From the NCBI RefSeq assembly GCF_988242995.1, contig NZ_OZ547043.1: a stretch of DNA of 64,000 nucleotides, one strand, 5' to 3'. The translations under genes and the position numbers were made by a program. Positions 61,061 to 64,000 of the stretch are shown here, one piece after another (the stretch's first letter is position 1; each line of letters begins with the position of its first letter). The notes below the pieces were generated by a model. That model worked only from the letters and a program-made list of their open reading frames with translations. It did no database searches and was not told the origin of the DNA.

Positions 61061-61315
61061 ATGTCGATGTACACAACCGCCCAGCTGCTGGCGGCAAATG
61101 AGCAGAAATTTAAGTTTGATCCGCTGTTTCTGCGTCTCTTTTTCCGTGAGAGCTATCCCTTCACCACGGAGAAAGTCTATCTCTCACAAATTCCGGGGCT
61201 GGTAAACATGGCGCTGTACGTTTCGCCGATTGTTTCCGGTGAGGTTATCCGCTCCCGTGGCGGCTCCACCTCTGAATTTACGCCGGGATATGTCAAGCCG
61301 AAGCACTTAGCATGA
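61061..61315 (+). pseudogene. E: major capsid protein E, 5' fragment only
   Basis: 84 codons matching the recalled lambda gpE N-terminus (MSMYTTAQLLAANEQKFKFD...GYVKPKH), then an immediate stop; lambda gpE is about 341 aa. Confidence 0.8.
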
Positions 61316-61468
61316 CTTTCTGAGGCTTTCGTGTAGTTGCTGGTTTTTACACTTAATCTTTTGATAATAAAGAATAAGTTTATCTGGTGCTTTCACTGAA
61401 TTTTCCTCGTTATCTGTGTGTTGCAATCATCTCTGTATTGCAGCTTGTATTGCTTTTTGGGGCTAAAA

Positions 61469-62704
61469 ATGGCTGGCGAGAACAAACTGAGCGACAAAGC
61501 GCTTAAAGGATATCTGGGGAAACCCAGAGAAAAGCAGATCACCATTGCTGATGGAAAGGGGCTTTCTATTCGTGTGAGTACTAAAGGGGCTGTGAGCTTT
61601 GTTTTCTTCTACAGGTTAGCAGGTGGCCGGGCTGCTCCGGTCTGGCTAACGTTGGGTAAATATCCTGATATGTCACTCAAACAGGCAAGGGAAAAGCGCG
61701 ACGAGTGCCGTGGTTGGTTGGCTGACAAACGTGATCCGCGTATCCAGATTAAGATTCAGGCTGAAGAACGCTTAAAGCCGGTTACAGTGGAGGATGCACT
61801 AAATTACTGGTATGAAAATTACTGTAAGGTGCGTCGTAAAACTCATGCTGTAACGCTTGGCAGATTTCGAAAGCATATCTTTCCCTATATCGGTCATTTG
61901 CCCGTAAATGACACTCACCTATATGAATGGCTGGACTGTTTTGACCGAATTAAACGTAATGCACCAGTTATGGCGGCGTATGTTTTTTCTGACACTAAAT
62001 TAGCTCTTCGTTTTTGTCGGGTACGCCAGTACGCGACGTGTGATGCTTTAAAGGATTTGCGCATGAGTGATGTGGGGCAGATTGCAGGTAAGCGGGATCG
62101 GGTTCTGGATGAAGCCGAACTCGGCCAGCTCTGGAAGGCAATTTTTGTCGAGCCTGATTTAAAACTAATGTCTGAATACACGCGAAAAATGTTTGTGCTT
62201 TGTACAGTATTTGGATGTCGAATGAGTGAAGCCCGATTATCAGAATGGAGCGAATGGGATCTCGAAAGTTGGGTTTGGACTGTACCAAAAGATCACTCAA
62301 AAACTGGTGTTGAAATCGTCAGACCAGTACCTGAAATTCTACGACAGTGGGTAACGGATGTTCACGAAGAGACAAAACATACTGGTTATGTGCTGGGAAG
62401 TCTGCGAATTAGAGAAAGCGTAAGCAAGATTGGGGGGAAAATCGGTAAACGTTTGGGCCATGAAAAACAATGGTCACTACACGACCTTAGAAGAACGCTA
62501 TCTACTCATCTAAGTGATCTCGGTGTTGAATTTTATGTAGTAGAACAACTGTTAGGCCATGCGCTACCTGGCGTGGCAGGTGTTTACAACCGGAGTAAGT
62601 TTATGGCTAAAAAACTGGATGCTCTGGAACTCTGGACTACATATCTCAATAGCATCGCAGCTGCTGATTCAAAAGTGACAATCCTCAAACAAAAGGTTGG
62701 TTAA
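61469..62704 (+). CDS. P4-family tyrosine integrase
   Basis: 411 aa from ATG 61469; N-terminal integrase arm-binding-like region and C-terminal catalytic motifs (HDLRRT...GH...Y). Confidence 0.8.
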   Translation: MAGENKLSDKALKGYLGKPREKQITIADGKGLSIRVSTKGAVSFVFFYRLAGGRAAPVWLTLGKYPDMSLKQAREKRDECRGWLADKRDPRIQIKIQAEERLKPVTVEDALNYWYENYCKVRRKTHAVTLGRFRKHIFPYIGHLPVNDTHLYEWLDCFDRIKRNAPVMAAYVFSDTKLALRFCRVRQYATCDALKDLRMSDVGQIAGKRDRVLDEAELGQLWKAIFVEPDLKLMSEYTRKMFVLCTVFGCRMSEARLSEWSEWDLESWVWTVPKDHSKTGVEIVRPVPEILRQWVTDVHEETKHTGYVLGSLRIRESVSKIGGKIGKRLGHEKQWSLHDLRRTLSTHLSDLGVEFYVVEQLLGHALPGVAGVYNRSKFMAKKLDALELWTTYLNSIAAADSKVTILKQKVG

Positions 62705-62705
62705 C

Positions 62706-62933
62706 ATGAAAAAAATGGCAATTGTTGATAAAAAGGGTCTGGAGTACATTCCTAACATTGACCGAATGATCCGTGAGAAAGAATGTCGGGAGCTAACCAC
62801 TCTTGCGAACAGCACACGCTGGAAGCTGGAGAAGGAAGGAAAATTTCCTAAGCGGATCAAGATTGGTTCCACTGCTGTTGCATATCGTCTTTCAGAAGTG
62901 CAGGCATGGATTCGAGGTGAGTGGGTAGTTTAA
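62706..62933 (+). CDS. AlpA-family phage transcriptional regulator / excisionase-like protein
   Basis: 75-aa ORF with HTH (LANSTRWKLEKEGKFPKRIKIG...AYRLSEVQAWI) directly after int. Confidence 0.65.
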   Translation: MKKMAIVDKKGLEYIPNIDRMIREKECRELTTLANSTRWKLEKEGKFPKRIKIGSTAVAYRLSEVQAWIRGEWVV

Positions 62934-62960
62934 ATTATCTCAGAATAAAATATTATGAAT

Positions 62961-62992
62961 TACTGATTTGAGAATTTGTACTCAAATCAGTA
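62961..62992. terminator. bidirectional hairpin between the alpA-like gene and the convergent membrane-protein gene
   Basis: perfect 12-bp inverted repeat tactgatttgag / ctcaaatcagta around an 8-nt loop. Confidence 0.5.
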
Positions 62993-63002
62993 ATAACATT
63001 CT

Positions 63003-63539
63003 TTATAAGAGATTAAATCCAAATAAAGAGTAATCATATACCGGGGTGCATTGCATCCCACTGAATATGCTGATGTTTTTTTCTGTTTCTATCCTTTTTT
63101 CAATAAGTTGTTGTATATTTTTACAGTACAATTTGTGTGTGATGTTATTATCGTAAGCCTGATATAGCAACGTCAATGTTGATGCTATGAAACATGCAGA
63201 AAGAAAATGAACTAGTACATGTGAGCGTTTTTTGGTTGTCCATGATGCATTCGCTTGTGAAATATAAATCATTCTGAGAATGATAATGATGATAGACAGT
63301 AACAGACCACTCAATAAAATAAGTATTGGGTTTGCGTATTTAATTAATGGTTGAGAGCAAAAAACTATTATAGCTCCTGTGACTGCGTATGAGAAAAAGG
63401 AGTAATTAAACTTCTTACTCCTTCTCTCAAGTATTTTAATTTCATCTTGTGTGGGGGTTTTAGATGCCTCTAATATAAGTTTATTAAATGTTTCTGTTAT
63501 CTTGTTTTTTGTGTTTGTGGCTATTTTTTTTAGATTCAT
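63003..63539 (-). CDS. hypothetical AT-rich membrane protein with two predicted transmembrane helices
   Basis: 178-aa ORF with GGGAG RBS 6 nt upstream of the ATG; hydrophobic stretches AVTGAIIVFCSQPLI and ILILLSGLLLSIIIIILRMIYI; no recognised family. Confidence 0.5.
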   Translation of the reverse strand: MNLKKIATNTKNKITETFNKLILEASKTPTQDEIKILERRSKKFNYSFFSYAVTGAIIVFCSQPLIKYANPILILLSGLLLSIIIIILRMIYISQANASWTTKKRSHVLVHFLSACFIASTLTLLYQAYDNNITHKLYCKNIQQLIEKRIETEKNISIFSGMQCTPVYDYSLFGFNLL

Positions 63540-63889
63540 AGCATTCTAACTCCCTTAACTTATTTATTACTTTCTCTTTATGATAAGAGAGGGGAATGAC
63601 TTGGTAAAGTGATTTGTCATTAATAATGATAATCCTTGCGATAAATATTTCTGCAAGTTATTTACCTGTTTGTTGCTATCTTGTTAAGCGTTGGGTGTGG
63701 TTTATGTTTGGAGCGACTTTATTTAATCGTGATTTTATGGATTTATATTTATATCCTGTAAGATAAGCGCATGTTAGTTCAGGAGTAGTGTCAGATAAAA
63801 TTATTCGGAGTAGAACTACCTTTTCTGTTTATTGCCAGTATTTACATAGCAATGCGCCGTAGTTACTCACATCACGGCGCTGATACTAA

Positions 63890-64000
63890 TTATTCAGATT
63901 CTTTGGCTTTACGCCGCTGGAGTTCTTCACGAGCGACGGCTACGAGTTGCCCGATTTCCTCCGCTGCCTTGATACCGATTTGTTCGACCTTAGCTAAGGC
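63890..64000 (-). CDS. 3' end of an unidentified gene running off the window
   Basis: minus-strand frame encodes ...ALAKVEQIGIKAAEEIGQLVAVAREELQRRKAKESE then a stop at 63890-63892; higher GC than the surrounding AT-rich DNA. Confidence 0.3.
   Translation of the reverse strand, partial: ALAKVEQIGIKAAEEIGQLVAVAREELQRRKAKESE

Follow-up and report, generated by a model that had tools for sequence, protein, structure and literature searches.

A small AT-rich gene in the cargo slot behind alpA of a helper-embedded phage satellite encodes a predicted inner-membrane protein and candidate anti-phage factor

What function might be served by a short, AT-rich orphan gene that lies directly behind the integrase and alpA genes of a phage satellite, on the strand opposite to them? 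The question is raised by the right end of a 64,000-nucleotide stretch of contig NZ_OZ547043.1 (RefSeq assembly GCF_988242995.1), hereafter the window, where an open reading frame encoding 178 amino acids from an ATG start codon (ORF178; 63003-63539, minus strand) occupies this position. The satellite is a helper-embedded phage-inducible chromosomal island (HE-PICI) inserted in the major capsid gene of a lambdoid prophage, its helper. ORF178 is, very probably, a real membrane-protein gene carried as cargo in a variable slot of this element. Two points are new here: ORF178 and its few relatives make up a tiny membrane-protein family that had no annotation, and the slot behind alpA behaves as a hotspot for defence-type cargo. 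From this position we derive a candidate anti-phage function for the gene, which we weigh below against several alternatives.

The case for a real gene, as opposed to a chance reading frame, rests on remote homologues, on purifying selection and on a structural model whose quality depends on those homologues. With near-identical sequences alone, AlphaFold2 models the protein at a mean predicted local distance difference test score (pLDDT) of 44; with 14 diverse homologues the score rises to 85 and the model becomes confident and all-helical. Between Escherichia coli alleles, the ratio of nonsynonymous to synonymous divergence (dN/dS) is 0.1-0.25 over codons 1-80 and 116-178. The intervening codons 81-115 (window 63197-63299), which span the end of the second transmembrane (TM) helix, a cytoplasmic loop and the start of the third, form a mosaic, hyper-divergent patch in which dN and dS are both about 0.46, while the remaining gene is about 98% identical between alleles. 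The patch looks like the product of recombination with a divergent allele, or of diversification.

Hydropathy delimits three hydrophobic segments (residues 46-66, 70-93 and 107-127), all of which are also helices in the AlphaFold2 model, and the two hydrophobic helices of a preliminary description of this locus, made from the sequence, must be amended to three. The same description had noted a polar N-terminal region and cysteines towards the C-terminus, and both are borne out: residues 1-45 are polar and basic (11 K/R, 5 D/E), and the C-terminal tail of about 50 residues, with a net charge of 0, contains Cys139 and Cys164, each invariant across the family. Lysine and arginine counts in the successive soluble segments (11, 1, 3 and 5) follow the positive-inside rule and for that reason suggest an N-in/C-out topology, in which the last 50 or so residues are probably periplasmic. 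Together with the three hydrophobic helices, these charges predict location in the inner membrane. Because the cysteine pair is invariant, a C139-C164 disulfide may well stabilise the predicted periplasmic tail.

Searches for relatives of ORF178 found few, all of them uncharacterised. A word-indexed search retrieved E. coli alleles of at least 88% identity and nothing beyond, whereas an exhaustive HMMER search of 1.84 billion representatives returned ten proteins at E <= 1e-3, of which six reached E <= 1e-10, with remote homologues ranging from E = 3e-20 to 2e-4. Members come from Phytobacter, Citrobacter, Ewingella, Pseudomonas and metagenomes, with Brenneria and Citrobacter freundii added through the AlphaFold database. 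Throughout the family the three hydrophobic helices are kept, residues P71, C139, Q143, F159 and C164 are invariant, two motifs recur (H-D-x-Y-C-x-x-[LI]-Q and E-K-N-S-x-I-F-x-x-M-x-C), and the genes are all AT-rich relative to their own flanks. The preliminary description had recognised no known family, and this holds on systematic searching: Pfam, NCBIfam, PHROGs and PADLOC yielded only noise (DUF443 at 1e-3, cola_mem at 0.02), the PADLOC-DB v2 defence models gave no family at E <= 0.1, and a profile search of the PDB matched nothing. Fold searches with the model returned generic helical hairpins or family members and nothing else. Foldseek against BFVD gave no match with E < 0.3, and against AFDB50 it found only uncharacterised relatives; no homology to a housekeeping membrane protein emerged from these fold and profile searches. 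Neither sequence nor profile nor fold comparisons, then, link ORF178 to a known family of defence, exclusion, toxin or holin proteins.

The genomic contexts of the homologues are more informative. Homologues of 32-35% identity hold the same slot in satellites that are likewise embedded in capsid genes, from Phytobacter, Citrobacter and a viral metagenome contig; there, a small YlcI-like reading frame is followed after 30-66 nt by the ORF178 homologue. The integrases of these elements are closely similar to that of the window by inspection (identity was not computed), and their replication modules differ. A further homologue is embedded antisense among the head genes of a prophage operon, the classic arrangement of a moron, and others adjoin an integrase fragment and umuDC. 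One Pseudomonas homologue lies close to a pyocin S locus, and a tblastn search of plasmids gave a single weak match in Pantoea. Two of the non-E. coli satellites carry an unrelated second cargo gene between alpA and the ORF178 homologue, encoding a 203-aa protein with an N-terminal TM helix (L004 10543-11154) in one and a 315-aa protein (L044 6536-7483) in the other, neither with a family assignment. The 203-aa protein, which stands beside the Phytobacter homologue, was compared with putAbiC and is unrelated to it.

Within E. coli, the distribution of ORF178 identifies it as cargo. The int-alpA pair of the satellite is present in 174-178 of 5426 complete genomes, and ORF178 or its junction in 66-67 of these; sister elements, defined here by an int-alpA segment at least 96% identical, were compared by junction-specific searches and by their annotations. 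The similarity between them stops at the alpA stop codon, and about 60% of them lack ORF178, which shows that the gene is dispensable for the satellite. Where it is present, it is largely intact, with a match over at least 80% of the reading frame in 66 of 67 carrying genomes (the copies among the matches listed span all of the reading frame). In place of ORF178, the slot holds a TIR-domain protein in 37 genomes (PADLOC PDC-S35, E = 7e-67), a DUF2971 protein accompanied by a SWIM gene in 33, a putAbiC protein with an N-terminal TM helix in 11 (PF16872, E = 2.8e-16) and a 273-aa hypothetical protein, also with a SWIM gene, in four. The putAbiC gene has the strand and the position of ORF178, directly behind the YlcI/YnfO gene. 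A blastn mosaic delimits an exchangeable block made up of ORF178, the spacer upstream of it and the YlcI-like gene (62926-64000 in the window, continuing to about 64182). This block is common to three records, is replaced by other cargo in sister elements and is found joined to one or the other of two replication-module variants. A second cargo or defence slot, to judge by its gene content, lies at the far end of the satellite. It holds a DUF262 and HEPN gene pair (PADLOC NsnA, E = 2e-59, PD-T4-2 A/B), and an AbiJ-like protein or hypothetical proteins instead in sister elements. This end lies beyond the window and is located on an annotated record of the element, L001, whose coordinates become window coordinates on addition of 46999 (L001 23740-25456, equivalent to 70739-72455; the exchangeable block corresponds to L001 15927-17183).

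The assignment of ORF178 to an integrase element in the preliminary description can now be made specific. The element is an 11.3-kb insert (L001 14297-25620), of which the window's right end (61296-64000) contains the first part, and it splits the major capsid gene of the helper, annotated as N- and C-terminal pseudogene halves on either side of it; the portal, S49 protease and decoration genes of the helper lie upstream on the same strand. The attL core AGCCGAAGCA lies inside the capsid gene at 61296-61305 (plus strand), and the attR core AGCCGAAGCA about 11.3 kb downstream at L001 25611-25620, the two forming 10-bp direct repeats. The left core is followed inward by the tyrosine integrase gene (61469-62704, plus strand; encoding 411 aa when read from the ATG at 61469, with a GTG at 61418 opening the longest reading frame) and by the gene for an AlpA-family excisionase or regulator (62706-62933, plus strand; RefSeq annotation, phrog_2790 at E = 5.9e-18). 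ORF178 and the YlcI/YnfO gene come next, both on the minus strand, and then an Icd-like gene, small reading frames and a DUF4222 gene. Primase, single-stranded DNA-binding protein, the satellite's own major capsid and decoration genes, a gene for an AlpA-like helix-turn-helix protein and the DUF262 and HEPN pair make up the remainder; primase, single-stranded DNA-binding protein, capsid and decoration genes, like the cos copy, all lie past the window end. That copy, of about 259 bp at L001 23261-23519, is 90% identical to the helper cos region (window 54897-55154, with cosN GGGCGGCGACCT at 54928), a duplication consistent with packaging by the helper terminase.

These features, namely a capsid-gene insertion with 10-bp cores, an inward-pointing 11capE-clade integrase with alpA behind it, and replication and late zones with cos, are those of an HE-PICI. 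The attL core, the split capsid gene and 97.5% nucleotide identity to an element of E. coli NRG857c over int-alpA-ORF178-YlcI identify it as the previously described 11capE type, at site E:Phage_cap_E:80. Full-length matches were also obtained when complete E. coli genomes were searched by megablast. The NRG857c element, Eco567.11capE (CP001855.1 1199333-1210409; L002 here), is the type element of Tommasini, Mageeney & Williams (2023; PMC10111431). It lies likewise in a lambda-E-like helper capsid gene and is co-oriented with it, carries a cos copy and, besides int-alpA and primase, capsid and decoration genes of its own, and has an ORF178 allele of 93% identity. In the supplement of that report the cores of E_Phage_cap_E_80 HE-PICIs are listed as A(A/G)CC(C/G)AAGCA, the same as in the window; the report also records a copy of the helper cos within the satellite and shows experimentally that the NRG857c element is excised and mobilised after helper induction (PMC10111431). 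It makes no mention of ORF178 or of the YlcI-like gene and labels the zone after alpA as "Bro" (PMC10111431). In our element this zone has no Bro-named gene in the RefSeq annotation (Bro-N domains were not tested) and behaves as a cargo slot with defence-type alternatives. Our literature searches found no follow-up on HE-PICI cargo.

At 0.313, the GC content of ORF178 is below that of the window (0.492), of int (0.449) and of alpA (0.443), in keeping with the low value noted for it earlier, and the good ribosome-binding site reported at the same time is the Shine-Dalgarno sequence AAGGGAG (63550-63556, minus strand), 10 nt ahead of the ATG. About 40 nt upstream of the start is a sigma-70-like promoter candidate, TTTACC and TATCAT separated by a 17-nt spacer (63580-63608, minus strand; L001 16609-16581), put forward on its match to the consensus. 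The convergent arrangement with int-alpA behind a strong hairpin was correctly described: a bidirectional, terminator-like hairpin with a 14-bp stem separates alpA from ORF178 (62950-62995), with a minimum free energy of -23.7 kcal/mol against -9.2 +/- 2.5 for shuffled sequences (z = -5.8). Upstream, an AT-rich spacer of 350 nt (63540-63889, minus strand) separates ORF178 from the YlcI-like gene. Its alleles are nearly identical in sequence; no credible reading frame was found in it, and its predicted structure is moderate only (z = -3.1). ORF178 is antisense both to int-alpA and to helper late transcription.

What might such a gene do? The reading we favour takes ORF178 as an accessory gene of the moron type, carried where this known HE-PICI accepts variable cargo. 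Because it is co-oriented with, and downstream of, the YlcI gene and antisense to int-alpA and helper late transcription, it would be expressed in the quiescent, lysogenic state, from the promoter of the YlcI gene, from its own candidate promoter, or from both. Its product would protect the cell that bears helper and satellite against phage, and its predicted periplasmic tail may interfere with the entry of competing phage genomes at the inner membrane. The anti-phage component is proposed because the same slot otherwise holds defence-type genes. Exclusion is preferred to abortive infection because ORF178 encodes a single small protein without sensor or partner, because its relatives stand alone without an antidote and because its most conserved part is predicted to be periplasmic. 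Taken as a whole, this reading of an inner-membrane slot cargo with an anti-phage role, preferably by exclusion, falls a little short of an even chance in our estimation. An anti-phage role of any kind, as suggested by position, seems to us evenly balanced, and action by entry exclusion specifically is possible but doubtful. The boldest version, which we advance only tentatively and consider somewhat unlikely, is that ORF178 founds a new family of single-gene exclusion proteins with three TM helices and a periplasm-facing disulfide tail (H-D-x-Y-C ... E-K-N-S-x-I-F-x-x-M-x-C). That tail would block entry of competing phages, for instance heteroimmune lambdoid ones, and divergent alleles would circulate in HE satellites and prophages.

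The preliminary description had already named abortive-infection or exclusion effectors as candidates, and its suggestion survives in part: the alternatives found in the slot of sister elements (TIR/PDC-S35, putAbiC and DUF2971) speak for it, while homology to a known defence, exclusion, toxin or holin family is lacking. In silico the protein is placed in the inner membrane, as befits an exclusion protein, and it has no homology to a characterised exclusion family in PHROG, Pfam or BFVD. Several observations weigh against the favoured reading. The argument from slot position is indirect, and the expression state, topology and disulfide of ORF178 are all predicted. Ewingella and Pseudomonas have solitary chromosomal homologues without mobile-element context, and tblastn of 50,697 sequenced phage records gave no ORF178 match. 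Finally, matches of the DUF2971 and SWIM proteins to the PADLOC candidates PDC-S31 and PDC-S62 are weak (E about 1e-4).

The same facts can be read in other ways. If ORF178 were an abortive-infection effector, triggered by infection to depolarise or permeabilise the inner membrane and to kill the cell ahead of phage release, then its multiple TM helices, the presence of defence-type genes in both cargo slots, and the sharing of slot and orientation with the N-terminally membrane-anchored putAbiC of sister elements would all be natural. A single 178-aa protein, however, offers no recognisable sensor domain or partner and no similarity to AbiC-, AbiP- or RexB-type models. Moreover, its relatives occur alone in chromosomes or in a prophage head operon with neither antidote nor regulator, and a conserved, predicted periplasmic cysteine motif fits a binding surface better than a pore; we consider this explanation distinctly unlikely. 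A host-fitness or lysogenic-conversion factor, an envelope protein altering tolerance of stress, serum, bacteriocins or antimicrobial peptides by the logic of bor and iss, would share the moron-like placement and orientation of ORF178, and it would account for the solitary chromosomal homologues of Ewingella and Pseudomonas, including the copy near the pyocin S locus; iss itself is carried by the helper prophage. The slot alternatives, however, are of defence type (TIR/PDC-S35, putAbiC) and none is a virulence gene, and the family is tiny and sporadic, which leaves this account unlikely, if worth keeping in view. A part in the satellite's own life cycle, modulating helper lysis timing or hampering the helper at the membrane, has a precedent in LidI of the Vibrio PLE, which modulates lysis timing, and would suit a membrane protein whose family recurs in the same slot of divergent capsid-targeting satellites. 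Yet some 60% of E. coli sisters with the same int-alpA carry unrelated cargo, and co-induction is made unlikely by an orientation antisense to the satellite early and helper late operons. Nor are there the hallmarks of a holin, a charged cytoplasmic tail and a neighbouring endolysin: the neighbours are alpA and the YlcI-like gene, and the tail has no net charge, two conserved cysteines and a predicted periplasmic location. We regard such a role as improbable.

A further account makes ORF178 a toxin whose antitoxin would be the YlcI/YnfO-like protein encoded upstream, given that a gene for a small, putatively DNA-binding protein precedes one for a membrane protein in three divergent lineages, the two being 30, 66 or 350 nt apart, and that the YlcI-like proteins of two sister satellites (L020 and L021), not the 101-aa protein of the window, have weak, sub-threshold RelB/VapB and other ribbon-helix-helix matches. 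In a type II pair one expects obligate co-occurrence and tight coupling. What is found is a 350-nt spacer in E. coli, atypical for such a pair, YlcI-like genes in all slot variants without ORF178 and in the helper, and ORF178 homologues without any YlcI-like gene, so that each gene occurs without the other and the pairing is very improbable. That ORF178 might be a non-functional or decaying frame in AT-rich filler DNA is suggested by its low GC content and orphan status, and by a few truncated or in-frame-deleted variants. This explanation is largely refuted and retains scarcely any credibility: the remote homologues are conserved and share invariant residues, selection is purifying in all but one patch, 66 of 67 carriers have a copy matched over at least 80% of the frame, and the confident model depends on co-evolution.

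Several known systems bear comparison with ORF178. One is putAbiC (PF16872), which shares with ORF178 the slot, the strand, the place directly downstream of a YlcI/YnfO gene and membrane anchoring, but has one N-terminal TM helix and a soluble domain where ORF178 has three TM helices and a short cysteine-containing tail; model searches gave no match of ORF178 to Abi models or to the putAbiC domain, the two proteins not having been compared pairwise. SieA of P22, gp15 of HK97 and Imm of T4 are small, single-gene, accessory inner-membrane proteins with a presumed action at that membrane on incoming phage. ORF178 resembles them in being a small single-gene inner-membrane protein, accessory on a temperate element, and differs in having no detectable PHROG homology. 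In the cI-rexA-rexB operon of lambda, a membrane-protein gene lies downstream of a regulator, and RexB needs RexA. The ORF178 locus is similar in that a membrane gene is co-oriented downstream of a small regulator gene that is divergent from the lytic or replication operon; it is dissimilar in that ORF178 has no partner comparable to the RexA that RexB requires, and the regulatory role of the YlcI-like protein is itself putative. Bor and Iss of lambda are outer-membrane lipoproteins with a role in host fitness. Their genes, like ORF178, are opposite-strand accessory genes among late genes for which lysogenic expression is expected, although their products are outer-membrane lipoproteins and that of ORF178 is a predicted polytopic inner-membrane protein.

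If ORF178 does act against phage, a compact, unannotated membrane family would be added to the catalogue of satellite and prophage exclusion and defence systems. HE-PICIs would then have a second defence hotspot, located between alpA and a conserved YlcI/YnfO-type gene and open to systematic mining. The satellite and its unusual insertion in a helper capsid gene are already published, and the increment here is a candidate gene and the definition of a hotspot, not a new kind of element; among the many orphans of such hotspots, ORF178 itself is a reasonable candidate but not an exceptional one.

The gene upstream of ORF178 had been seen as a same-strand gene ending at 63890 with a charged tail, and it does so (...REELQRRKAKESE). 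It was then left unidentified, and it can now be named as a member of the YlcI/YnfO family (RefSeq annotation, NF041551 and phrog_6522). The window contains its 3' part (63890-64000, minus strand), cut by the window end, beyond which the gene runs on to about 64195; complete in identical records, it encodes 101 aa. Against NF041551 the protein reaches 62.6 bits (E = 2.7e-17), where the curated cut-off is 30, and its match to phrog_6522 has E = 5e-64. In each sister element examined, a small gene of this kind adjoins the divergent region opposite the Icd-like and replication operon, and the same arrangement recurs in the Phytobacter, Citrobacter and metagenomic relatives. This recurrence makes it part of the satellites' backbone. 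A strand (TTVRVP or NIRFP) followed by two helices suggests a ribbon-helix-helix DNA-binding fold. Weak matches of related small YlcI-like proteins from sister satellites, though not of the window's own, to RepA/CopB, MobA, RelB, VapB and TraJ models favour the same fold. YlcI/YnfO is an already known, annotated family of unknown function; a search for a structure found none, and the literature on YlcI, YnfO and DUF3950 that we searched held nothing functional.

The YlcI-like and Icd-like genes are separated, just past the window end, by a divergent regulatory region (L001 17197-17386, L002 13191-13398) that is wholly different between elements. L001 has the repeats GTGTGTTTCATG/CATGAAACACAC there, and L002 several copies resembling GTGAGATA(T)ACA; these element-specific repeats look like operators. 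The YlcI-like region was also considered as the satellite cos and ruled out, the cos copy lying about 6 kb further on, where it adjoins a reading frame that is a fragment of Nu1. Beside the Icd-like gene, Rfam gave no match to immunity RNAs of the P4/P1 type (C4, isrK), and a MicX candidate on both strands at L001 23603-23759 was rejected as a small RNA: its 31 bits fall short of the gathering score of 75, and a GC-rich terminator hairpin explains it.

The helper prophage has a 64-aa ylcI of its own, on the opposite strand just upstream of cos/nohD (window 54534-54728), and the satellite protein is a distant paralogue of its product at 20% identity. The helper also carries iss, the bor homologue associated with serum survival (window 53878-54171). 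Between its antiterminator gene Q and the holin gene lie two opposite-strand genes (window 49898-52290; L001 2899-5291, minus strand), encoding a 404-aa hypothetical protein and a 391-aa "nucleoid-associated protein", neither of which had a PADLOC match; this interval is the position used by Stx and other morons.

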